Virus record (IMG/VR): IMGVR_UViG_2579779009_000005
DNA from: a virus
Taxonomy: Duplodnaviria; Heunggongvirae; Uroviricota; Caudoviricetes
DNA: 45,234 bases
Strand: one strand, 5' to 3'
Positions within the stretch are counted from its first letter, which is position 1; each line of letters opens with the position of its first letter. Shown in pieces: positions 5,866 to 34,236 of this stretch. The notes beneath the pieces are model-generated. The model worked only from the letters and a program-made list of their open reading frames with translations, was not told the DNA's origin and did not search any database. Position numbers and translations under genes: made by a program.

Positions 5866-8795
5866 CAGCCCTGCCCCCTTGGCGTACGTTTAACGTTCAT
5901 GTTGCTGGTAATGGCGTTGCTTATTGGCCCGCCGTTATTCAAGTCTGCAACGACGACATCAACAGTCAGCCCACCATTTCCGTCTGTTCCAGCCTGAGCA
6001 TCTACAGAGGATGACGTGTAGTTCTGAATGTTGATAACAACCCCACAACCGCCCGCCCCTTGCATATCCTTGTTGCTGATCACCTTGCCATTGTCGCCGG
6101 GTATCATGTACTGCTTACCGGTGCTGGCCTGATAAATCTCAGGCATCCCGCCCTCACCTACCTGATACATTCCGCCCGCCGATACCGGGCCGCCGTTCTT
6201 ACGCTTACCGGCCAGCGCCATGACTCCCGCCATAGCCCCGACACCAATTGCCACTGCCGCGCCCCATGATGCGATCGACGACATGAGCGCCGCCGGTGTC
6301 CATGCTGCCGTGGTCGTTGCCGCCGCCGCTGTACTGGCTGCGGTCTGCGTGGTAATACCGGCAACCTGTGCTGCTGTAGTGGCAGTGATTGCGGCCTGCT
6401 GAGTTGTGGCCCCCATAATCGCGGACTTAGCCCAGTCGACGCCCATCTGCACAAAGGAGTTAATCAGCTGGTTAACTACTGAGTTAGCGAGTGAACGAAC
6501 AGCCTCCTCACCACTTTGAGTGCCAGTGATGATCCCCGCAAAGGCACTCGATGCGTTGTTGCCAAGGGCATCAAGCGACGCCGCAAGCATCTGGTTGGCT
6601 GCGCTTTGCTGTGAGAACAAAGTCCACTGGGCAGCAAGACGCTGCTGCTCGTATTCGGTATCGGCGGCGTTACGCAGTGCAAGCGCGTTCTCGTGAGTAA
6701 TCAGACCTTCCTGCTCATAAGCCTGAATCAGAGCAAGTTTTCGGGCATTCTCGTTTGCCAGTTGCTGAACAGGATCAACTCCGCCAGCGGCATCTTGCTG
6801 CGGTGTAACCACCTGCTGCGCGCGAATTTTGGCAAGGTTGGCCTGGTGAGTAGCTTCGAGCCTTTCAGAGGTCTCGTTGTACTGCTCCTGGCTGATTTTC
6901 TTGGCTGACAGGGCGGTATTCAGCGCTTCAACATCCTGCCTGTAGCTGGTGTTTTCACGCGCTTCCGGCAATAGCTTCTCTGCTGCGGCCTGCGCTTTAA
7001 TGGCGTTGGCCGTATCCCATTTTGCCGCCGCGTACTGCCCCGCCAGCGCGAGCTGTTCTTTTGTGGCTCCTTTTCCGAGAGACTGCTGCGCATTAAGGAT
7101 CGCCTGCTCGCGACTCAGCCTATTTGTTGAGTCAGCGGCAAGCTCCGATTGCTGCTTGAGATTAGCCAGCTTCTGAGCGATAGACTCCGCCTGAGACGCT
7201 CCTTTCTTCTGTTCGGATTTGAGGACCTTCTGTGCTTCTGTATTTTTGTAAGTGGCAGCAGCGTCATCCTCCATCTGCTTGGCATGCGGATCATCCTTCG
7301 CAAATCCAGCATCTTCGGCAGCGTATTGAGCCTGCAACCGCGCGCGGGCCTCCCCCTGGAGCTTAGACAGTGCCAGATTGCGTTCTGACTGCTTGATCAG
7401 GTTCTTCTGCCCGGCGGTAAGGTTATCTGTTTCCTGCTTCAGAGCAGCAACATTACCTTTAGCAATGACGGCTTCACGCGATAACTCAACAAGTTTCCCT
7501 ACGAATGCCGTGAGTGCGGTCTGCCCTTTTTCGGTTGAGCTCTGAGTGTTCTGCAGTTCAGTAGCAAGTCGCTGCAGGGCTTCCGGAGATGGATTTTTTG
7601 CAATATCGGAAAGCTGCTTGCTGAACTCGAAAGCTTTTTGCTCGGATATCCCGAACTTGTCGGCTACAGCACCAACAGTATTGCCAATGCTGTTTGCAGT
7701 CGCCTGGAATGCCTGCCCGGCACCGTATGCCTGCTTCATCGCCTCGGAATAGTTATCCGTGGTGATTTCCAGAGTAGTCAGACGATCGTTAAAGCCATCG
7801 ACTGACGCATAGCCTCCGGAAAATGCTGAAAGCGCCTTGTCCCCGAAGGAAAGTAGCGAGCTCGAAGCATCGCTGATCGCTTTAGGTATCTTATTGATAG
7901 CCTCGTTGTATTCCAGCAGCGCCTGGTTACGCATCAGTGTTGCTACTTCGGTATTCGTTTTCGCTAGCAATGCGTACTTATCAGACAGTGCGGCCACGCC
8001 ATTTTGGGAAATGGTAATGACCTTATCCATCGCCTCGGCTGCGTCTTTCAGCGCATCCATCGCGTTCTTGCCGCCATTAAGAGAAGTGATGAGCACACCG
8101 GCCAGAACAGAGCTCAGAGCGATAACAGAACCAATTACCGCACCACCCGGCCCGAATGCACCGGCAAGTTGAGATCCTTGCTGTGCAAACGCTACCAGCG
8201 CGGACTGGCCACCCTGAACCTGAATGATAAAGTCCTGAACCTGGTACCCGGCCTGTTGCATGCTGTTTTTCCAGGCCCCGGTTCCTTTCGCTCCGGTTTC
8301 CACACCTGTTTTCATGTCATACAGTCGACCGGTCAGCTCGCCGATCTTCTGCTTCTCTTCATCGGTCGCTTTTGAGCCGGCACGCAACTGTGCCGCTAGG
8401 ACTGCTGCGCTACGCGCGCCATTCTCCTGCGCCTCGTCCAGCACTGCGAGTTGGTTACCAAGCGCCTCGATGATGGATTCGGCGCGATTGAACTCACTGT
8501 TAGCGCCACCGGTACCGCTGCGGGCCTCTTCCATTACGCGGGCGATCCCGCTCACATTGGTGTTAAGTTTGCGGAGTTGGTTATCCATCGAGTTGGCATA
8601 ACCAGCCAGTTCAGTAAACGCGGATCCGGTTTGAGATGCGCTCTGATCGAGGTTATCCATTCCCTTGCCGGACTGCTGGGCCGCAGCATCCAGTTTATCC
8701 AGAGCATCAATGGCCTGTTTCCCGCCCTGCAACAGCGGCTCAACGTCGGCGCTGATTTCATAAACGATGCTACCGGCGTTCTTCTCACCTGCCAT
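5865..8795 (-). CDS. Tail tape measure protein
   Basis: 976 aa, Ala/Gln/Gly-rich helical protein with a C-terminal hydrophobic/Gly-rich segment. Start revised to MAGEKN (ATG at 8795, RBS ggaga) because the upstream in-frame ATG lies inside a terminator hairpin. Confidence 0.8.
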   Translation of the reverse strand: MAGEKNAGSIVYEISADVEPLLQGGKQAIDALDKLDAAAQQSGKGMDNLDQSASQTGSAFTELAGYANSMDNQLRKLNTNVSGIARVMEEARSGTGGANSEFNRAESIIEALGNQLAVLDEAQENGARSAAVLAAQLRAGSKATDEEKQKIGELTGRLYDMKTGVETGAKGTGAWKNSMQQAGYQVQDFIIQVQGGQSALVAFAQQGSQLAGAFGPGGAVIGSVIALSSVLAGVLITSLNGGKNAMDALKDAAEAMDKVITISQNGVAALSDKYALLAKTNTEVATLMRNQALLEYNEAINKIPKAISDASSSLLSFGDKALSAFSGGYASVDGFNDRLTTLEITTDNYSEAMKQAYGAGQAFQATANSIGNTVGAVADKFGISEQKAFEFSKQLSDIAKNPSPEALQRLATELQNTQSSTEKGQTALTAFVGKLVELSREAVIAKGNVAALKQETDNLTAGQKNLIKQSERNLALSKLQGEARARLQAQYAAEDAGFAKDDPHAKQMEDDAAATYKNTEAQKVLKSEQKKGASQAESIAQKLANLKQQSELAADSTNRLSREQAILNAQQSLGKGATKEQLALAGQYAAAKWDTANAIKAQAAAEKLLPEARENTSYRQDVEALNTALSAKKISQEQYNETSERLEATHQANLAKIRAQQVVTPQQDAAGGVDPVQQLANENARKLALIQAYEQEGLITHENALALRNAADTEYEQQRLAAQWTLFSQQSAANQMLAASLDALGNNASSAFAGIITGTQSGEEAVRSLANSVVNQLINSFVQMGVDWAKSAIMGATTQQAAITATTAAQVAGITTQTAASTAAAATTTAAWTPAALMSSIASWGAAVAIGVGAMAGVMALAGKRKNGGPVSAGGMYQVGEGGMPEIYQASTGKQYMIPGDNGKVISNKDMQGAGGCGVVINIQNYTSSSVDAQAGTDGNGGLTVDVVVADLNNGGPISNAITSNMNVKRTPRGQG

Positions 8796-8810
8796 GACAT
8801 TCTCCGGGCA

Positions 8811-8833
8811 TAAAAAAACCCGCCGCAGCGGGT
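8811..8833 (-). terminator. Intrinsic terminator after the two-gene moron
   Basis: Stem acccgc-ugcg-gcgggu followed by seven U on the minus transcript, between the stop at 8850 and the tape measure start. Confidence 0.6.
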
Positions 8834-8849
8834 TCGTCATTTAAATGAT

Positions 8850-9206
8850 TTAGGCTTCTCTCTTACCGAATGCATATCCCAAAGCCAGTGTTAGTATGGG
8901 CGTGAATATGGACCATACATCTTTTAAAGCGCTTACGATGTCAAACTTATCTGGTGAGTCAAGATCAAATGAAAAATGAAAAAAAACAAGCAGTAAACAA
9001 ACGCTGAAAATCCCACCTAAGTAGAAGCAATATTTCAAAGTTGTCCAGATAAATGAATCCCTTGCATGCTCACCAGTTCCAATCTCATTCGCAATTTTCC
9101 CCGCAACACTAACACCAGTTAGTCCACCTTGAGGTACTGAAGGTGTTGTAATTTCATTGTTTTGGGTTTGTAGTTTTGGCTCAGATGCAATGAAAGATTC
9201 GGTCAT
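8850..9206 (-). CDS. Small membrane protein (moron gene 2)
   Basis: 118 aa with two predicted TM helices (LKYCFYLGGIFSVCLLLVFFHF and SIFTPILTLALGYAFG). AT-rich. Start overlaps the stop of the upstream ORF. Confidence 0.5.
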   Translation of the reverse strand: MTESFIASEPKLQTQNNEITTPSVPQGGLTGVSVAGKIANEIGTGEHARDSFIWTTLKYCFYLGGIFSVCLLLVFFHFSFDLDSPDKFDIVSALKDVWSIFTPILTLALGYAFGKREA

Positions 9207-9586
9207 TACTCCCCCTCATAAAAAGAGAAGTTGACAATAACTGAAATCTGGTCCGTTCCGATTTCTCTAATGTTGGAATGCCATGCCATGAATAATTTTT
9301 TCCCATTAGATTTCTTGCCAATTTCGGCCGGAATAACAAGACCTACAGCTTCATTCATAATAGGGACAATTACCCTGTGGACGAAAACAACCTCTCCATT
9401 TTTAACGAATGCATCAACCCCCTGCTTATTCGACTCACTTTCAGGCAGAATTTTTGTCGTAATTAATATAGTTAATCCATCGTAAACCAATTTTAAAGGT
9501 TCAGAAGGAACTAATGGATTAATAATGCTATGAAAGCTACCTGACTGTAATAGAGTTTTTCCATCTGCGCTGGCTTTTACTAACAT
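9206..9586 (-). CDS. Hypothetical soluble protein (moron gene 1)
   Basis: 126-aa ORF in an AT-rich insertion between the tail chaperone and tape measure genes. RBS gaagg upstream. Confidence 0.5.
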   Translation of the reverse strand: MLVKASADGKTLLQSGSFHSIINPLVPSEPLKLVYDGLTILITTKILPESESNKQGVDAFVKNGEVVFVHRVIVPIMNEAVGLVIPAEIGKKSNGKKLFMAWHSNIREIGTDQISVIVNFSFYEGE

Positions 9587-14235: not shown

Positions 14236-14667
14236 TTACTTAATGACAACGCGCAGGAGATCGCCTGCCGCCGTAGTGTATGCGCGATCTTCTTCAACGA
14301 ACGCACGGACAGATTCGCCTTCCGCAGCCGCTTTGACACGTCCATTGGCAATCGATAACGGTTGACCTTTTTTGTAGGTGCCAGCCGCAGCTGGTACGTT
14401 AAAGCAAACGCCAGAAGTAGGATGCATTGCCACAACCCAGTCACCCGCCGCGATAGTGTCATCCACCGTTTTGCAGCGCAGATAATCGAAGTTGGCCACG
14501 TACAAAATTGCAGCTTCGTTACCATCTACAGAGGCGGTAAATTTGCCGTTTTCAAAAAAGCCTACCGTACCGGGCTGAGTATCTGCCGCCGCCACACCTT
14601 CTCGATGAAGTTGTGGGTTATGGAAGATACCGCCCGCGTGAATTACGTGTTTTCCATCTTTAGCCAT
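14236..14667 (-). CDS. Head decoration protein (putative)
   Basis: 143-aa Gly/Ala-rich ORF between the protease/scaffold and capsid genes. Confidence 0.45.
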   Translation of the reverse strand: MAKDGKHVIHAGGIFHNPQLHREGVAAADTQPGTVGFFENGKFTASVDGNEAAILYVANFDYLRCKTVDDTIAAGDWVVAMHPTSGVCFNVPAAAGTYKKGQPLSIANGRVKAAAEGESVRAFVEEDRAYTTAAGDLLRVVIK

Positions 14668-14670
14668 TTT

Positions 14671-16056
14671 TTACTCCGGCATTTCGCTGAAAGATTCGTT
14701 GTTATTGACCTGGCGGAATGCACCATTCAGGCCAGTAGAGGTCTGGCACTGTGCGTACAGGCCATCAAGTGCCGCACCATCGAGGGCATTCACAGCAAGG
14801 TCATCCAGACCAAATTTCGCTTTGACCGCCGAGCGCTTTTCACCCTTCTCTTTGTCGGCGTTAACCGCCAAACCGCTTTCAATGGTGTTAAGCTTTTCTG
14901 CGAACGGGGCAAACCAGGCCGGTGCCTGTTCGCTGTTATTGGCCCGCTCTTTTTTCTTGGGTTTGCCGGTTTCCGGGTCGATTTCTTCATCGCCTTTTGT
15001 CTTGGCGGTGGCTTCATCTGCCTTCATCTGGTTGTATGCGTCCATCAGCTCGGCGTCGGACTTGCCTTCAGTCGGCTTACCAGCGGCTTGCAGCGCATTG
15101 ATAATCAGTTCTTTCATCGGATCGTTCTCTCCGTTGGTTTTAATCTCGTACTCAGTGGGTTTGCGCACGACTTCTACAGGTTCGCCGACGAACACGGCCT
15201 TGCCGTCATCATCGATGAGGTACTTCTGCTTCAGGTATTTGGTGTCATCGCGGTAGATGAAGCTGTCCGGCCACACCGTTTCAGGCCAAAGCCACTTATC
15301 TTCTGTGTCACCCTCGCGCAGCTTGTCGCTGATAGCGCGGGAGATGTCGTCGAAAGAGAAGTTGGAGGCATTGGTGAAGAAGAATTTGGTTTTGTTGAGC
15401 AAGCCGTCGCGGGTGCAGTCGATGCCATCAGCAAGGCGGGCAACTTCTATCTGCTGCTCATCACCCTCAGCGTTAACGAAGATGCCCACGCCCTCCTCAG
15501 GAGTGCCAGCGCCCGGCTCATCAAGCAGCACTGCAACATGGTCAAACATCATGTTGGTGGCGATTTCGTTATACTTCTTGCCCTTCGACTCGCCGTTGGC
15601 GGCGATACCGGAATACAGCAGGCCAGTGGAGATGTGGATCGGGTCGGAGTTAGTACCGGCCAGCATCTCATCCAGACGGTTAATCAGGCGCTTGCCCTTG
15701 TCACTGGACTCTGCGTACTGGCGGTTAACGTACATGTCGCCTGTCACCTTGCCGTCATTGTGGCTCACGTTTTGCAGCCAGGCCCCGACGTGGTACTCAT
15801 TCACCGCCCGGACATCTCGCGCCGACACATGCTTGCCGTCCACTTTCGGGTGGCCCAGCGGCATCGGGTTACGCTCGAGCGTGTTGTAGGCCTTTTCGAT
15901 TTCTGCTGCCGGGTACAACTTCCGGTTCATCACGATATCGTCCACGACAGGCGTGATGCCGCGAACCACGATATGTGGCTTGCCGTCGATGGTTTCAGTG
16001 GTGATGTTTGATGCGGAGTTGACGACGGTCAGCACGTTAACGCGGTTGCGTTTCAT
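14671..16056 (-). CDS. Prohead protease / scaffold fusion protein
   Basis: 461 aa with a globular N-terminal part and a charged K/E-rich C-terminal scaffold-like region. Sits upstream of the decoration and capsid genes. Confidence 0.6.
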   Translation of the reverse strand: MKRNRVNVLTVVNSASNITTETIDGKPHIVVRGITPVVDDIVMNRKLYPAAEIEKAYNTLERNPMPLGHPKVDGKHVSARDVRAVNEYHVGAWLQNVSHNDGKVTGDMYVNRQYAESSDKGKRLINRLDEMLAGTNSDPIHISTGLLYSGIAANGESKGKKYNEIATNMMFDHVAVLLDEPGAGTPEEGVGIFVNAEGDEQQIEVARLADGIDCTRDGLLNKTKFFFTNASNFSFDDISRAISDKLREGDTEDKWLWPETVWPDSFIYRDDTKYLKQKYLIDDDGKAVFVGEPVEVVRKPTEYEIKTNGENDPMKELIINALQAAGKPTEGKSDAELMDAYNQMKADEATAKTKGDEEIDPETGKPKKKERANNSEQAPAWFAPFAEKLNTIESGLAVNADKEKGEKRSAVKAKFGLDDLAVNALDGAALDGLYAQCQTSTGLNGAFRQVNNNESFSEMPE

Positions 16057-16085
16057 GCTGGGTCCTCATTGGTGGATTGCGGACA

Positions 16086-16108
16086 ATAAAAAACCCGCCG
16101 GAGCGGGT
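16086..16108 (-). terminator. Intrinsic terminator after HExxH moron
   Basis: Stem acccgcuccggcgggu followed by uuuuuauu on the minus transcript, between the stop at 16119 and the protease start at 16056. Confidence 0.6.
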
Positions 16109-16118
16109 GAGTTATTAA

Positions 16119-16973
16119 TTAACTTCTTACATACTGACATAGCACGTCAAATACATAATCGATATAATTCTTACCTTCTGACTCGTCAAATTTAGGAGCG
16201 GTACCTTTTTTATTGTAATAGAAAAGTGAAAGTAGTGGAAAAGCAATTGCTACACTTTTTTCATCATCACACTGTGTACTTTTAAACATGCTTTCAATTC
16301 TAGCAGTCGCATGTGGGTGCGAACGTTCCCCGCCATTATCAGTACTTTCTTGGTCTAGAATTATTACTAATGCTAACAGTGACCCACTAAATCTTTTGAT
16401 GAAATGGTTCGGAAGTGTATTTTCATCAAAAATGAAATTTGTTGCAAAACTGTCTGCATCAACTTCCTCTTGACGACACTGAGAATACTCACCATCCGTA
16501 TGCTCTAATTTGATATGCCCTATCTCATGTAGCATGATCCATGCCATGGCACATAGAAACAACTCATCACCAACATCAGTGCTTTCACCATCAAAGTAAC
16601 TCAGATGCAATAAAAAGTCTTTATCATTTAACGATGAGGATATATTAGCCTTGCATAATTCAAGTAACTTCCTTTCACGATCAATCTCATCTTCAGTAAT
16701 TCCAACCCCTTTGGAATTAGCTATCTTATATTTATTATAAAGTGACCATGACAGACAAGAAACCACCCAAACGTAATAAAGCGATGACAACGGTAAATAA
16801 ATTTCTTTTTTTGATGTACTTACAGAAAAGGAAAAGGAACGTGAATCTTCAAAGCACACATCGAATTTTGGATGTACATCACCCCTTGATGAATTTATGT
16901 TATAAACACATTTTTTTAAACTTGTCTCTAATCGCGACAAGGGAAAGTCTATAGGCATGCTTCTGAGTGTCAT
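16119..16973 (-). CDS. HExxH zinc metallopeptidase, Lit-like (peptidase U49?) moron
   Basis: HEIGH motif with a downstream EH, near residue 150 of ~284 aa. Strongly AT-rich. Own terminator. Inserted between the head morphogenesis and protease genes. Tabulated start is TTG; the ATG at 16973 is preferred. Confidence 0.45.
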   Translation of the reverse strand: MTLRSMPIDFPLSRLETSLKKCVYNINSSRGDVHPKFDVCFEDSRSFSFSVSTSKKEIYLPLSSLYYVWVVSCLSWSLYNKYKIANSKGVGITEDEIDRERKLLELCKANISSSLNDKDFLLHLSYFDGESTDVGDELFLCAMAWIMLHEIGHIKLEHTDGEYSQCRQEEVDADSFATNFIFDENTLPNHFIKRFSGSLLALVIILDQESTDNGGERSHPHATARIESMFKSTQCDDEKSVAIAFPLLSLFYYNKKGTAPKFDESEGKNYIDYVFDVLCQYVRS

Positions 16974-17024
16974 TATTTTTTCTCTTAAAAACAATTATAA
17001 TTAGACATTTACCAGAAACATATA

Positions 17025-18032
17025 TCATACAGCCACTGATTGTGACCAATCTTTTCTTTCTTTCGCCAACTTATCCGCCAGTCCTTCGTTGAAGATTCTG
17101 CCGTCGTCGTTGAGCAGTACCGGTATCTGGCTGCAATAGCAGTGGTATTTGTTACCATCTACTGCATACCAGTCGCGCACCTCTTGCACGGTTCTGACCT
17201 TTCCATGCCAGAATGCGTGCGTTGTCCTGGTGGTAGGCTTTAGCGCAGAAAGATGGAGAAGACCTGTATTTAGCCCCAGCCTCTCGGATGCCCAGTCCGT
17301 TTCATTCCATTGAGCTTCACGCAGCGCGCCGACCTGCTCTGTCTGAGCGATGTTCTTTGCCTTCGACATAGACACATCGAGGCGCTTGCTGATGACACTG
17401 GCCGTCTCGCGAGGATTTACCCCTCGCGCTACCGCATCGGTGATGATGTTGGTCAGGTCGCCACGGGCTGTGTCGCTGATGACCTTCCAGTCACTGAACG
17501 TTGTCAGCCTGGCCGCCGCCACCTGATTAAGGTGACCGGGACTACTTAAAAGCTGCTGTAGCGTCGTCTGGCTGGCGTACACCTGAGACTGCTGCGATAG
17601 GTTGTTAAAAGCCTCCAGCGTGCCTCGCTGCGCTTCTGCGACGACGTAATCCATCGCCCACAGGTTTTGCTCGCCACCCTCCAGCAGGTAATCGTTAAGA
17701 ATCGACTGCACTGCTTCGAGGAGGCCAGCCAGTTCCTGCGCCGACATGTCGTAAATAAACTTGCCAGCGTTGACCTGGTAGAGCCGCATGTCCTCGCCTT
17801 GGTCGTGGCAGAGGAAGTGCCAGTTATGGCTGTTTACCTCTCGCTCTCGTCCGGTCAGGCGCTGGTCGAACAGTGCTTTCAGTGCGCGCTTGATGCCGAG
17901 ATACCGATCTTCGATATCCCGGAACATCGCGGCAACCTGCTTTGCCGATCGGGTCGGGTCAACCTTGCTGCGCGGAACTATCGGCAGGCCCACCTTTGCC
18001 GTCTGTTCTGGTGTCATCGGCCAGTGGATCAT
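17025..18032 (-). CDS. Head morphogenesis protein (SPP1 gp7 / Mu F-like)
   Basis: 335-aa ORF immediately downstream of the portal gene, in the typical position of this family. Overlaps the portal 3' end by ~70 nt, so the start is uncertain. Confidence 0.55.
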   Translation of the reverse strand: MIHWPMTPEQTAKVGLPIVPRSKVDPTRSAKQVAAMFRDIEDRYLGIKRALKALFDQRLTGREREVNSHNWHFLCHDQGEDMRLYQVNAGKFIYDMSAQELAGLLEAVQSILNDYLLEGGEQNLWAMDYVVAEAQRGTLEAFNNLSQQSQVYASQTTLQQLLSSPGHLNQVAAARLTTFSDWKVISDTARGDLTNIITDAVARGVNPRETASVISKRLDVSMSKAKNIAQTEQVGALREAQWNETDWASERLGLNTGLLHLSALKPTTRTTHAFWHGKVRTVQEVRDWYAVDGNKYHCYCSQIPVLLNDDGRIFNEGLADKLAKERKDWSQSVAV

Positions 18033-21222: not shown

Positions 21223-21867
21223 TTAGGCCAGCTTTAACATGCATGTTCCGCATGACCTGGCTATATCGATGTGAGCAACTTCTGCTGGCGTATTTGCCGC
21301 ATCAACGAGCTCCTGTACTTCCTTGCTTGCACCGTATCGACGCACGACACCAGTGAATTCTTCGACGTCGTGGCCGCGTAGTGTGAGCACTGGCTGACCG
21401 GTCTCTTTGTTAAACTTAGGCGCGCCGTAATCATCAGTGGCCTGGGCTATGTGGTAAAGCTCATGCTCTACCAGCGCGCAGAACTCGAGGTCACTGCATT
21501 GTGAGCAGTAATCGGCTGCAAGTGTGATGATGAACTTCGGGATGCGCCCGAACCATTCATGCATCTGCTGTTCCATTCTGGCTTTCTGCCAACCACCGGC
21601 GCGGAGCATTACCTGTTCGGCCTGGCCGAGAACGTAGCGCCCTTTCTTCGCAAATGAGCCAGACGCCCACATAAAGCAGAGGTCAGCATCCATCAGGTGA
21701 ATGTGGTCAGGGTTATGGGTACTTCCGGTATCGCTGAGGATTTGTCGGCTTATCCATTCATGCACTTCGTTAGCGGGGATCAGCCTGGTGTATGGCTGCC
21801 AGTTGTCGGAGTTGATGAAGTTAACTGGCGGATATGGCCTGCGCTCGTCATCGTTAGCCATTTGCAA
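21223..21867 (-). CDS. Putative phage metallopeptidase (HExxH)
   Basis: HELYH motif in a 214-aa ORF upstream of the terminase genes. Confidence 0.45.
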   Translation of the reverse strand: MQMANDDERRPYPPVNFINSDNWQPYTRLIPANEVHEWISRQILSDTGSTHNPDHIHLMDADLCFMWASGSFAKKGRYVLGQAEQVMLRAGGWQKARMEQQMHEWFGRIPKFIITLAADYCSQCSDLEFCALVEHELYHIAQATDDYGAPKFNKETGQPVLTLRGHDVEEFTGVVRRYGASKEVQELVDAANTPAEVAHIDIARSCGTCMLKLA

Positions 21868-21979: not shown

Positions 21980-22318
21980 ATGGGTATTGAAGAGAATTTA
22001 CTCGAGACACTGTTAAAGAATGATGTTTTCCATGAAGAGGATGGAAAAGTATCAGGCATTGCCAAGCGTGCTATCGATAAAGGATATGCAAATTTATCAC
22101 CGGCACAAAAGCGAGTATTACAACCGTTTATGAGTCATGGTTGTGAGGGTTATACCGATCCTGGTGGACATCACAACGGTTGCGGAAAAGTTCTGGAAGG
22201 TGCAGAACTTGATGAAGCTTATGAACACACATGGGAGCATGGCGGCTTACTCTGCGAGGACTGTCGCGAACAAAGTGGTTATGACGATTACCGTCGTGAG
22301 AAATTTATGAAAGACTAA
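21980..22318 (+). CDS. Cys/His-rich hypothetical protein (opposite-strand moron)
   Basis: Strong RBS aaggagg. Motifs HGCEGY...HHNGCG...CEDC suggest a zinc-binding fold. AT-rich upstream region. Own terminator. Confidence 0.5.
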   Translation: MGIEENLLETLLKNDVFHEEDGKVSGIAKRAIDKGYANLSPAQKRVLQPFMSHGCEGYTDPGGHHNGCGKVLEGAELDEAYEHTWEHGGLLCEDCREQSGYDDYRREKFMKD

Positions 22319-23154: not shown

Positions 23155-23616
23155 CTAATTTGAACACTGTCCTTTTATGTAGTCCTGCAGATAGCCGACC
23201 TGCTTCGTCACTGTGGTGATTCGCTCTCTGAGGGTGAAATAATCCCGTTCAGCGGAGTCAGTAAGTCGGGGGCCGGAAGCATCGCCCATGCCGCCGGTGC
23301 CGGTCTCTCCGTTCGCTGTGCATCTGGCGTTGAGCTGCAACCGACGCTTGCCAGTAGCAACATCGCGCTCAAGCTGATCGATAGTGGCTTTGGCATCAGC
23401 CAGTTCTCCGGTGTATTTTGCATCCAGCGCAGCGACATCACGCTGGCGGGTTTGCATGTCTTTGATGGTGGCGTTCGCCAGGCTGAGTTGCTCGGTGGCC
23501 TTATCGCGCTGGTCTTTATAGGTGATGGCGTTGTCGCGATAGTGGTTAATCGCCCAACCCATTGCGCTGATTGTCACGATGATTACCGCACAGGTAATTC
23601 CTGTGATTCTACTCAT
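23155..23616 (-). CDS. Rz: Spanin, inner membrane subunit (Rz)
   Basis: Clear similarity to remembered lambda Rz ([40 protein letters not shown]). Start revised to MSRITGI (ATGA overlap with the endolysin stop). Confidence 0.85.
23208..23396 (-). CDS. Rz1: Spanin, outer membrane lipoprotein subunit (Rz1)
   Basis: Embedded in Rz in the +1 frame. The C-terminus [26 protein letters not shown] matches the lambda Rz1 pattern. Start codon choice is uncertain. Confidence 0.7.
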
Positions 23617-24724: not shown

Positions 24725-24753
24725 AATATATGCGTTTCAGTTCGGTTTTGCAA
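24725..24753 (-). promoter_or_regulatory. Candidate late promoter (pR'-like)
   Basis: TTGCAA, 17-nt spacer, TATATT on the minus strand, overlapping the 3' end of the Q-like gene and about 50-80 nt upstream of the tandem terminators. Confidence 0.45.
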
Positions 24754-25426
24754 GACTTGCATCTAAATTTGTCGCCTTTTGTTGTGAACGTGATCGCGTT
24801 ACTGAGATAAGCGTACCGCTATCGAGTCGCTTAAAGCTATTACGCATTGCCAGCCAGTGAGGCAAATACGTTTCCGTCCATGTGGATTTCGCTACGCCCG
24901 CCAGTTCCGCCAGCACCTGGTACTCGTATGTCTCACGGCCTGCCAGTTCTGCTTTGACATCCTGCGCCGCCAGCCAGATAAGTTTCTTCAGGCGTTCCAT
25001 CGTCTTGCCAGCCACTTTCTTCACACCAAGCTGTTCCCGGAACTCTGCCCACGCCCACTGGGTGATTGCCACCTGGTATTCGAAGCGGACGTTCTCGCTA
25101 TAGTTCCACAGCAGCCACGCTTTCTGGTGTTCTTCCAGCGACAGGACGGCGCGGCGCCATGACGCGGTACCAAACTCCACAGGGCTGACCAGCGCGATAG
25201 ACGAGCCCTTAGCGCGTGACTGGCTGCCGCTCATCGGCGGACCATCCGGGTTGACCATGCGCTGCTTATCCTTGTCGAATACCTTTTTCCGGCCCCGGCT
25301 GCGCGCCGTCGCGGTGAATTGCGCATTCTCGGCGAAAGCTACCAGCTGCCCTTTCGTCGCCCCGCTCAGATCTGCGGTCGCCACAATGAGCTGCTGACGT
25401 ACGTATTCCAGTTGCTGACTGTTCAT
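24737..25426 (-). CDS. Late gene antiterminator, Q-like (putative)
   Basis: 229-aa ORF at the end of the nin region, directly upstream of the promoter / tandem-terminator / lysis-cassette arrangement. Family assigned from position, not recognised from sequence. Confidence 0.45.
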   Translation of the reverse strand: MNSQQLEYVRQQLIVATADLSGATKGQLVAFAENAQFTATARSRGRKKVFDKDKQRMVNPDGPPMSGSQSRAKGSSIALVSPVEFGTASWRRAVLSLEEHQKAWLLWNYSENVRFEYQVAITQWAWAEFREQLGVKKVAGKTMERLKKLIWLAAQDVKAELAGRETYEYQVLAELAGVAKSTWTETYLPHWLAMRNSFKRLDSGTLISVTRSRSQQKATNLDASLAKPN

Positions 25427-28214: not shown

Positions 28215-28558
28215 TAGTCAGCAGTTCTCCCGCGCCAGCGTTTGTTACTTTCTGAGATTCGATCCGTATCGACGGATTCGACCTCCCCTTCGGAAAATCT
28301 AATGGCATTGGCTTTATTTAGTGCTGCCCTGGCCTCGTCTTCGGCCTTACTGAAATGCACCTTCTTCCGCCCCCTGAAACTGCCTGCGCGGATTTTTGAT
28401 GAGTTCTGCGCCTTGTACTTGCTGATCCGTAACTGCGCCGCCAAATGGGCTTTTGCCTCTGTACGGTTCGCAGGTTTCTTCTTGACCAACTCAAGGTCTA
28501 ATTTGTATTGCTGCTCAGCATTTAGCTTCTTGGGCTTCATAGCGTCACTCTCAAACAA
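28214..28558 (-). CDS. Hypothetical basic protein (114 aa)
   Basis: Lys/Arg-rich. First gene of the three-gene set. An alternative start at M7 is possible. Confidence 0.45.
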
Positions 28559-28941
28559 AGTCCGTTTATCATAGAATAAAAGGCCCCTAGGGGCCTTGAT
28601 TTATATCTATGGTAACTCTCGTCAACTTGTTCGTCACTTCACCTGCTGCGGAGCTGCTGCGAGCATCGTACGATAAGCAGATGCATGGTAAATGCCATGT
28701 GACACCCAGGCGGCATTAAGCATATCTGGCGTTGGCTCCTTCTGAACCATCACCCAACCATCCGGAATCACCGGAGAGTTGCTATCTTGCGTGGCACCCT
28801 GAAGCATGGCGGCGCGAGCGGTATGAGCAAAGTATTCTTATAGTCGCGGCGATGACGTGCCATGACCACCCAATTTATCTGGACAAATCACTGGAGCTAT
28901 AGGATACATAATTGCATTTTAGCTAAAGGCGTTAACTGATT

Positions 28942-29379
28942 ATGTGGCTTACTGTTTTTACTACAATTATCACTGGTGTGACCGTCTACATCATAGGTCA
29001 AATAATAACCAAATGCGCATTGGAAACGTACATCTCGTTCAAGGAGCATCTGGGAAGAATTTCGTCACTCTTACTTCGCGAGCAAAGTAAAATAATGAAT
29101 TTTAAGCCAAATAGCGAATTAATACATGAGCTAAAGGCGTCATCAGGTCTTTTAATTGCAAAATCGAAAGCAATCCCATTCTATAATTTTTTCTCAAAAA
29201 TAGGCCTTACTCCAGTTTACAGCGATGTGATTGAAGCGTCACACCAACTAAATTTAATAGCTTCCATCTTAGAAGGCGGCAACAATTCATATTCCAGTAA
29301 TCCATCTCCTTCAGGCCAATCCATCTACTCTTCTTTGAAAATCATTGGAGAAAAGCTTGATATAATTGTTTCGTACTAA
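28942..29379 (+). CDS. Membrane-anchored hypothetical protein (opposite-strand moron)
   Basis: 145 aa with an N-terminal TM helix (LTVFTTIITGVTVYIIGQII). Very AT-rich. Opposite orientation to the surrounding operon. Confidence 0.5.
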   Translation: MWLTVFTTIITGVTVYIIGQIITKCALETYISFKEHLGRISSLLLREQSKIMNFKPNSELIHELKASSGLLIAKSKAIPFYNFFSKIGLTPVYSDVIEASHQLNLIASILEGGNNSYSSNPSPSGQSIYSSLKIIGEKLDIIVSY

Positions 29380-29531
29380 TTTATTGCACCCGTACTGTTT
29401 TCTGTGCCCGTCAGCACGGGCTTCTCATGATCATAAAGTGCAGCGATTCCGCACGCGTTACAAGATATCCAATTGAGGTTATCGTCGTCATAATCAAATT
29501 CAGCCTTTCCATCGCAGTATGGGCAAGGCAT
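29376..29531 (-). CDS. Small zinc-ribbon protein (Lar-like?), not in ORF track
   Basis: 51-aa ORF MPCPYCDGKAEF...CNACG with two CxxC pairs. ATG overlaps the stop of the upstream ORF. Confidence 0.4.
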   Translation of the reverse strand: MPCPYCDGKAEFDYDDDNLNWISCNACGIAALYDHEKPVLTGTENSTGAIN

Positions 29532-33567: not shown

Positions 33568-34236
33568 ATGAAAACAAGAAGAACTGAAGAGAATGAGGAC
33601 GCTGTGAGTCTTGCAGATCGCGTAAAACAGAAAAGAGCTGAACTAGGGCTAACTCAGGTAGAAGCTGCTGAGATGGCTGGTATACGTCAGCAGTCCTGGC
33701 AAAGCATTGAAGACGGGAAAACCCTTAAACCTCGTAATATAATTGGTATAGCCAAGGCGCTTAAATGTGATCCGGACTGGCTGATGAACGGCGGCGCATT
33801 CATGCCGATGGCTGAGGTTAATAGCAGGAGAGTACCGTTGATAAGCTACGTTCAGGCAGGAGCCTTAGCTGAAAAGAATCCTATAGAGGCCTTTGACGGT
33901 AGTCTTGAATACATATTGACCGATCTCGACGTCTCCCAATACAGCTTTGCTCTTCGTATAGAAGGCGATTCAATGGAGCCTGACTTCAAAGCTGGAGATG
34001 TAATTATCGTTGATCCAGAGATAGAGCCTACCCCGGGCGAATTTGTAGTTGCCAAGAATGGAGGAACACAGGCAACATTCAAAAAATACCGCCCAACCTG
34101 GATTGATCCCAAAGGCTGCCAGCACTTTGAGCTGGTCCCTCTGAATGACGACTACCCCGTGATTAATAGCGATCAACAGCCATTAACTATTATCGGCGTG
34201 ATGATTGAACACCGTATTTACCGCAGAAAGCGCTAA
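33568..34236 (+). CDS. cI: CI repressor (HTH + S24 LexA-like peptidase)
   Basis: N-terminal HTH, an Ala-Gly cleavage-site candidate (VQAGALA), catalytic Ser in GDSMEP and a downstream Lys. Confidence 0.85.
   Translation: MKTRRTEENEDAVSLADRVKQKRAELGLTQVEAAEMAGIRQQSWQSIEDGKTLKPRNIIGIAKALKCDPDWLMNGGAFMPMAEVNSRRVPLISYVQAGALAEKNPIEAFDGSLEYILTDLDVSQYSFALRIEGDSMEPDFKAGDVIIVDPEIEPTPGEFVVAKNGGTQATFKKYRPTWIDPKGCQHFELVPLNDDYPVINSDQQPLTIIGVMIEHRIYRRKR

Follow-up and report, generated by a model that had tools for sequence, protein, structure and literature searches.

The stretch of DNA analysed here, which we call the window (45,234 nt), is a lambdoid E. coli prophage. Its gene series runs from holin/spanin through a DUF2280 small-terminase-like gene, TerL, portal, MuF, Lit, DUF2213, a small head gene and the DUF6260 major capsid gene to the tail. 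The Lit gene, its immediate surroundings and the regulatory genes discussed below are located as follows:

14236-14667: small head gene, between the DUF2213 and DUF6260 genes
14671-16056, minus strand: DUF2213 head protein (possible scaffold or prohead protease), the downstream flank (DUF2213, 4.9e-5; phrog_760, 1e-202)
16083-16108, minus strand: intrinsic terminator that closes the cargo slot on its downstream side, a GC stem-loop with a T-run (from a scan and a fold)
16119-16973, minus strand: coding sequence of a Lit-family (peptidase U49) zinc metalloprotease (from the ORF, PF10463, PADLOC Lit, BLASTP, RefSeq and dN/dS)
16452-16466, minus strand: E170-x-x-A-D174, predicted segment of the third zinc ligand (M48-like ExxAD)
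16515-16529, minus strand: HEIGH (H149-E150-x-x-H153), predicted zinc-binding and catalytic motif (from the sequence and family alignments)
16974-17024, minus strand: conserved AT-rich leader with an SD-like AAGAG and a -10-like TATAAT (16994-16999), from four Lit-bearing loci
17025-18032, minus strand: Mu-F-like minor head/head morphogenesis protein, the upstream flank (Phage_Mu_F, 6.3e-9; phrog_758, 6e-138)
24737-25426, minus strand: Q antiterminator
33568-34236, plus strand: CI/LexA-like repressor

Directly upstream of the DUF2280 gene, the window also carries a second putative metallopeptidase gene (21223-21867, minus strand), which matches PhageMetallopep (PF18894, E 1.9e-43) and phrog_513, labelled 'transposase'; its position is kept in Enterobacter and Serratia relatives.

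From a TTG start, the Lit ORF spans 16119-16994 on the minus strand (291 aa), and from an ATG at 16973 it encodes a 284-aa protein, the same CDS that RefSeq gives for an identical E. coli prophage under the product name 'phage exclusion protein Lit family protein'. An earlier reading, made from the letters of the window without database searches (the sequence-only reading), had described a protein of ~284 aa with HEIGH followed by EH, and the ORF at 16119-16973 encodes just that; given the CDS coordinates set by the two starts, the interval 16086-16994 assigned to it comprises the CDS and the terminator. The strong AT-richness noted in that reading was also evident. The GC content of the CDS is 0.356, compared with 0.52-0.56 in six neighbouring head/packaging genes and 0.525 in the whole window (z = -3.7 against all 855-nt windows of the 45,234-nt stretch), and the global GC minimum of the window lies inside the lit-like gene.

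The sequence-only reading had suggested a possible Lit-like abortive-infection protease, and profile searches supported this guess at the level of the family. The protein matched Pfam Peptidase_U49 (PF10463) with an E-value of 4.8e-16 and 59.5 bits, where the gathering score is 23.9 bits, over profile positions 3-196 of 202. It matched the PADLOC Lit model with an E-value of 7.5e-42 over positions 34-267 of 290, with the first ~35 and last ~24 residues of the protein unmatched. For direct comparison, the e14 lit sequence was taken from E. coli K-12. BLASTP aligned e14 Lit with the 284-aa protein at 26% identity and 47% positives over 242 aa (E 3e-20), close to the full length (query 52-283, e14 Lit 55-293), with the first ~50 N-terminal residues outside the alignment and HEIGH opposite the HEISH of e14 Lit (H160-E161-x-x-H164). 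Protein size (284 vs. 297 aa) and motif position (HExxH at 149-153 vs. 160-164) proved compatible with Lit, as anticipated. The NCBIfam Lit equivalog model NF007238 scored 108 bits (E 5e-31), below its 274-bit cutoff. Because the U49 and PADLOC scores pass while NF007238 reaches 108 of the required 274 bits, the protein is a divergent member of the Lit (peptidase U49) family and not a Lit equivalog, and its family membership is already recognised by standard pipelines (PGAP, PADLOC, Pfam).

An exhaustive HMMER search of 1.84 billion cluster representatives revealed a small family, with 214 proteins at E ≤ 1e-3, 34 at E ≤ 1e-10 and two at E ≤ 1e-30. These two best matches were the cluster to which the query belongs and a neighbour at 40% identity. 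The clade stands apart, in that the next representative at 50% clustering shares 40% identity, and the remaining family ~20-30%. It has no reference among isolated phages: in 50,697 deposited phage genomes, tblastn with the protein as query returned no homolog, and a literature search found no experiment on any member of this Lit clade.

We examined conserved residues in two family alignments, one of 41 sequences that includes e14 Lit and one of 51 sequences. Eight columns were invariant (W69, H149, E150, H153, E170, D174, P220 and R225), and the query has all eight. The near-invariant columns, which include E137, H158, A173, A177, K193, R194 and H219, are likewise all occupied by the expected residue in the query, which keeps seven to eleven such columns across the two alignments. 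A lack of Lit-specific residues outside HExxH had been named as something that would speak against Lit; every conserved one is there. Downstream of HEIGH come E157-H158 and the invariant E170-x-x-A-D174, which begins seventeen residues after H153.

We utilized AlphaFold2 to predict the structure, with the family alignment without e14 Lit as input. The model has a pLDDT of 92.8 and a pTM of 0.92 and is mostly helical, with a small N-terminal sheet. The confident helical model, together with the invariant ExxAD seventeen residues past H153, supports a predicted zincin active site of the type with HExxH and a downstream Glu (M48-like), and we infer that H149, H153 and E170 are the metal ligands and E150 the catalytic base. 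M48-type zincins (BepA/YfgC, HtpX and Ste24/ZMPSTE24) and the M56 protein BlaR1 share 14-21% identity with the 284-aa protein, which, unlike them, has no transmembrane or TPR modules. Membership of Peptidase_M48 (PF01435) itself was rejected, at 19.6 bits against a cutoff of 20.3. A whole-chain Foldseek search against the PDB gave no significant match (best E 1.5), Foldseek against BFVD gave no significant structural match, and a PDB sequence search returned no meaningful relative of the protein. A solved Lit-family structure thus appears to be absent from the searched PDB copy, both by sequence and by Foldseek.

The sequence-only reading located the gene between those for head morphogenesis and a prohead protease. 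The first neighbour stands, through phrog_758; the second is a DUF2213 gene whose 'prohead protease' label derives from weak PHROG matches to head maturation protease families (E 0.013-0.015). The terminator assigned to the gene is likewise present and strong, with a stem at 16108-16093 of six pairs (five G-C) followed by a T-run and a fold of -13.8 kcal/mol (z = -3.57 vs. shuffles), but it is not the gene's own. A near-identical terminator, followed by a AATCCACCAATGAGGACCCAGC leader, occurs in relatives whose slot carries other cargo, and since it is kept in Lit-bearing and Lit-less relatives alike, it is a feature of the slot. On the upstream side, TATAAT is present in the leader of two of the four orthologs, with a good -35 lacking on manual inspection. 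A sigma-70 promoter scan gave no convincing site upstream of the gene, and elsewhere only 9/12 matches at background frequency. It is possible that the Lit-family gene is transcribed solely as part of the late operon.

The position between the MuF-like and DUF2213 genes (window 16057-17024) behaves as a cargo slot. We compared loci L001, L002, L026-L028 and L030-L064 at the junction just upstream of the DUF2213 gene; the survey covers 35 species-representative loci from other species, whose DUF2213 genes are 56-98% identical to that of the window. None of these 35 relatives carries Lit. The slot is empty in seven, with a junction of 16-26 nt, and one more has a 42-nt junction with a terminator remnant. 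The other 27 hold inserts of 209-936 nt with a GC content of 0.34-0.49, compared with 0.51-0.58 in the flanks, and the largest ORFs of the slot cargo fall into 18 unrelated clusters (48-263 aa). Of the 27 occupied slots, ~18 were seen on inspection to close with a GC stem and a T-run, and in most of these a version of the AATCCACCAATGAGGACCCAGC leader follows before the DUF2213 start. Klebsiella phages with the same head genes hold a 104-aa or 74-aa ORF in the slot and no Lit, whereas E. coli prophages with these head genes hold a 170-aa hypothetical protein, an unannotated 146-aa ORF or a Rap1a/Tai immunity gene, the last found in one E. coli relative on the opposite strand. Ten slot-cargo representatives gave no above-threshold match in Pfam or PADLOC (nine cluster representatives plus a further singleton for Pfam, or the 170-aa E. 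coli cargo for PADLOC). Lit and the Rap1a/Tai immunity protein are the only recognisable occupants of the slot. Since relatives that share the head genes lack Lit, the description of the gene as a moron in the sequence-only reading holds.

The slot resembles lambdoid morons (HK97/HK022) and P2/P4 hotspot cargo in that an AT-rich accessory gene sits among conserved late genes and is bounded by a terminator, with unrelated cargos at the same position and an empty site in some relatives. Moron and hotspot sites are known from the lysis/cos junction, the tail-fibre end and the att-proximal end, whereas the slot of the window lies within the head-assembly block, between the MuF-like and DUF2213 genes. 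The slot has the usual moron layout, which allows the cargo to be transcribed in the lysogen without read-through to the head genes and lets Q-antiterminated late transcription run past the terminator. This head-module cargo slot, with its many orphan occupants, is a more unusual aspect of the locus than the Lit gene.

Other parts of the window also depart from their surroundings. A second AT-rich island (8850-9586, minus strand, GC ~0.38-0.39) contains ORFs of 118 and 126 aa between the DUF6246 and tape-measure genes, an interval that is the usual place of tail assembly chaperones; both ORFs are hypothetical in RefSeq. Two further ORFs, at 28942-29379 and 21980-22318 (both plus strand), run against the surrounding minus-strand operons, the former within an AT-rich stretch (28500-29500, GC 0.38-0.47). 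Their sole matches are to PHROGs of unknown function (phrog_7512 and phrog_12178), and both are further moron-like candidates. No PADLOC match was obtained for these four ORFs or for the window's AT-rich ORFs other than Lit.

Orthologs of the Lit gene with 87%, 77% and 67% identity were found in prophages of Enterobacter ludwigii, Serratia nevei and S. liquefaciens, all in the same MuF-DUF2213 position. They are equally AT-rich (GC 0.356-0.368, flanks 0.51-0.55), and they have diverged from the window copy to an extent that falls within the range seen for the flanking head genes. Pairwise dN/dS among the four orthologs (67-87% identity) was 0.20-0.28, indicating that the gene is maintained by purifying selection. 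The nearest outgroup, P0007, is a protein of 309 aa with 40% identity and a Pfam U49 match of 3.1e-19. Its gene (8001-8930 of loci L010/L011) belongs to another lambdoid prophage, whose head module is unlike that of the window; the lysis cassette lies on one side of it and the DUF1441/GpA terminase genes on the other. This branch of Lit therefore recurs as late-region cargo of prophages at more than one site. Proteins P0008 and P0009 lie on contigs too short for a useful gene context.

Within E. coli, the gene is rare: Lit of the window type is found in two of 5,426 complete genomes, compared with 283 of 5,426 for e14 lit. The Lit gene and its flanks (1.1 kb) are 100% identical to prophages of E. 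coli M10 and LR778153, and one IMG/VR contig is 99.97% identical to the window over 12.9 kb. We also found a deletion derivative, L024 (GCA_032659605.1), in which the Lit gene is 100% identical and the downstream head genes are kept, and which lacks the spanin end, TerS, TerL, portal and the N-terminal half of MuF. At the deletion junction, at locus position ~2284, window position 23339 abuts 17691. L024 may be a prophage in decay that has retained Lit, in the manner of e14; otherwise it is an artefact of the assembly.

The closest characterised protein for comparison is e14 Lit (cell death peptidase, b1139, MEROPS/Pfam family U49, from the cryptic prophage e14 of E. coli K-12). The two proteins fall in the same Pfam family and PADLOC model and share the invariant W, HExxH, H, ExxAD and HP..R positions, and both are encoded by prophage-borne, AT-rich accessory genes in E. 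coli. They differ in that the 284-aa protein stays below the NCBIfam equivalog threshold (108 vs. 274 bits), has ~50 unaligned N-terminal residues and is far rarer (2 vs. 283 genomes). Their settings differ as well: the window gene lies inside the late/head operon (MuF-like/DUF2213) of an apparently intact lambdoid prophage, whereas e14 lit adjoins the integrase at the end of a defective element.

Few abortive-infection systems have been known for longer than Lit, a textbook example of a defence that a capsid protein sets off, and, to our knowledge, essentially all that is known about it comes from a single protein, e14 Lit. The gene in the window is an uncharacterised but genuine member of this known defence family. 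As a second E. coli Lit-family protein, at 26% identity, it would allow a comparison of trigger and substrate specificity.

Three published sources describe e14 Lit as a zinc protease with an HExxH motif that lies latent until the Gol peptide of T4 gp23 binds to domains II/III of EF-Tu; the activated enzyme then cuts EF-Tu between Gly59 and Ile60, which blocks translation (PMC3014915, PMC9712102, PMC13228613). By analogy, we lean towards the view that the window protein is a latent zinc protease that aborts infection by rival phages, probably through cleavage of EF-Tu. The protein, a single-domain M48-like zinc metalloprotease of ~280 aa carried as accessory cargo by the lambdoid E. coli prophage, would, as assumed from e14 Lit, stay latent in the lysogen. 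A late protein of a superinfecting phage would act as the trigger (for e14 Lit, the T4 major capsid peptide on EF-Tu), and the activated protease would cleave an essential translation factor (for e14 Lit, EF-Tu at Gly59-Ile60), so that all translation would stop and the infection would be aborted. Since the recombination-prone cargo slot ends in a terminator directly after the cargo, within a Q-antiterminated operon, the cargo would be transcribed in the lysogen while the late genes are silent and the head genes are not read. The prophage context behind this mechanism is present, namely a CI-like repressor, a Q antiterminator and a lysis cassette. T4 gp23 and the capsid protein encoded by the prophage itself show no similarity in sequence (best E 0.33), a dissimilarity that would be compatible with self-tolerance but says nothing about the trigger. 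Family membership, the conserved catalytic residues, a zincin fold, purifying selection, the prophage context and the variable slot come directly from the analysis, whereas the substrate that is cut, what triggers the protease, its transcription in the lysogen and its role in defence are extrapolated from e14 Lit.

The alternative with the most in its favour, although we consider it fairly unlikely, is that the protein is a Lit-family abortive-infection or exclusion effector whose trigger, substrate or both are unlike those of e14 Lit; for instance, a Gol-like capsid peptide of T-even phages might go unsensed, or EF-Tu might be left uncut at Gly59-Ile60. With 26% identity and 108 vs. 274 bits, far under the equivalog cutoff, substrate and trigger could indeed differ. 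The isolation of the clade (40% identity to the next representative, ~20-30% to the rest of the family) and the parts that escape alignment (the N-terminal ~50 residues in BLASTP; the first ~35 and last ~24 in PADLOC) point in the same direction, and different specificities would fit the presence of both types in E. coli (283 and 2 of 5,426 genomes). Against this, the catalytic core and all family-invariant positions are common to the two proteins, and the sequence gives no pointer to another substrate.

A role in the prophage's own lytic cycle, with Q-dependent late transcription only and with, for instance, late shut-off of host translation or sabotage of a co-infecting phage as the outcome, seems improbable. 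The Lit gene is co-oriented within the late operon downstream of Q, no terminator separates MuF from Lit, a convincing promoter of its own was not found, and its orthologs diverge within the range of the flanking head genes, all of which would suit such a role. However, the head module works without Lit, as seen from the seven empty junctions and the many unrelated cargos, and a terminator placed directly behind the cargo is easiest to explain by transcription of the cargo while the late genes are off. In addition, the packaging-defective deletion derivative L024 keeps Lit intact, and the archetype, e14 Lit, acts from a cryptic prophage (PMC3014915).

An ImmA/IrrE-type (M78) metalloprotease had been the main alternative of the sequence-only reading. 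Such an identity, in which the protein would act as an anti-repressor by cutting its cognate repressor, is very improbable: the HExxH motif, a weak Pfam M78 match (PF06114, E 0.079, aa 145-185), weak PHROG matches labelled 'metallo-protease' or 'transcriptional regulator' (E 5e-4 to 1e-3, ~40 residues) and a weak PADLOC RmrA match around the motif are outweighed by the M78 score of 13.2 bits, under its gathering score of 22, and the U49 score of 59.5 bits over the whole domain, well above 23.9; there is no adjacent HTH repressor, since both neighbours are head genes, and the CI-like repressor, 17 kb away, is of the self-cleaving LexA/S24 type. The profile scores effectively refute this identity. 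Equally hard to credit is a head-morphogenesis component (a prohead maturation protease or scaffold-processing enzyme), which the position in the head module beside the DUF2213 protein might suggest, because Pfam and PHROG gave no match to a capsid maturation protease or scaffold family (such a match was what the sequence-only reading had said would tell against Lit), Lit is dispensable in relatives with 56-98% identical DUF2213 genes, the gene has a foreign base composition, and neither the 50,697 phage genomes (tblastn) nor BFVD held a homolog or significant match. The profile thresholds and the gene context effectively refute this role as well.

Returning to the reading of the protein as a latent, infection-aborting protease in a cargo slot, we can extend it in a direction that we regard as speculative and rather doubtful: the MuF-DUF2213 junction of this enterobacterial siphophage head module may serve specifically as a hotspot at which anti-phage or competition genes are carried, and the Lit clade may sense a different phage protein. 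If the junction were such a hotspot, the ~18 orphan cargo families would include undescribed defence genes; if the trigger were different, the clade would offer another natural specificity from which to work out how a complex of trigger and EF-Tu is recognised by Lit-type proteases. The locus shows that defence-type cargo can sit amid a head-assembly operon, and it makes the orphan occupants of the slot reasonable candidates for defence screens.

A separate group of genes lies past the left end of the window in E. coli M10, the strain whose prophage carries the identical Lit gene. There, L025 337-3852 encodes two acyltransferases, a hypothetical protein and an S24 peptidase between the tail-fibre gene and the tyrosine recombinase gene, and may be an O-antigen/surface-modification cargo module.
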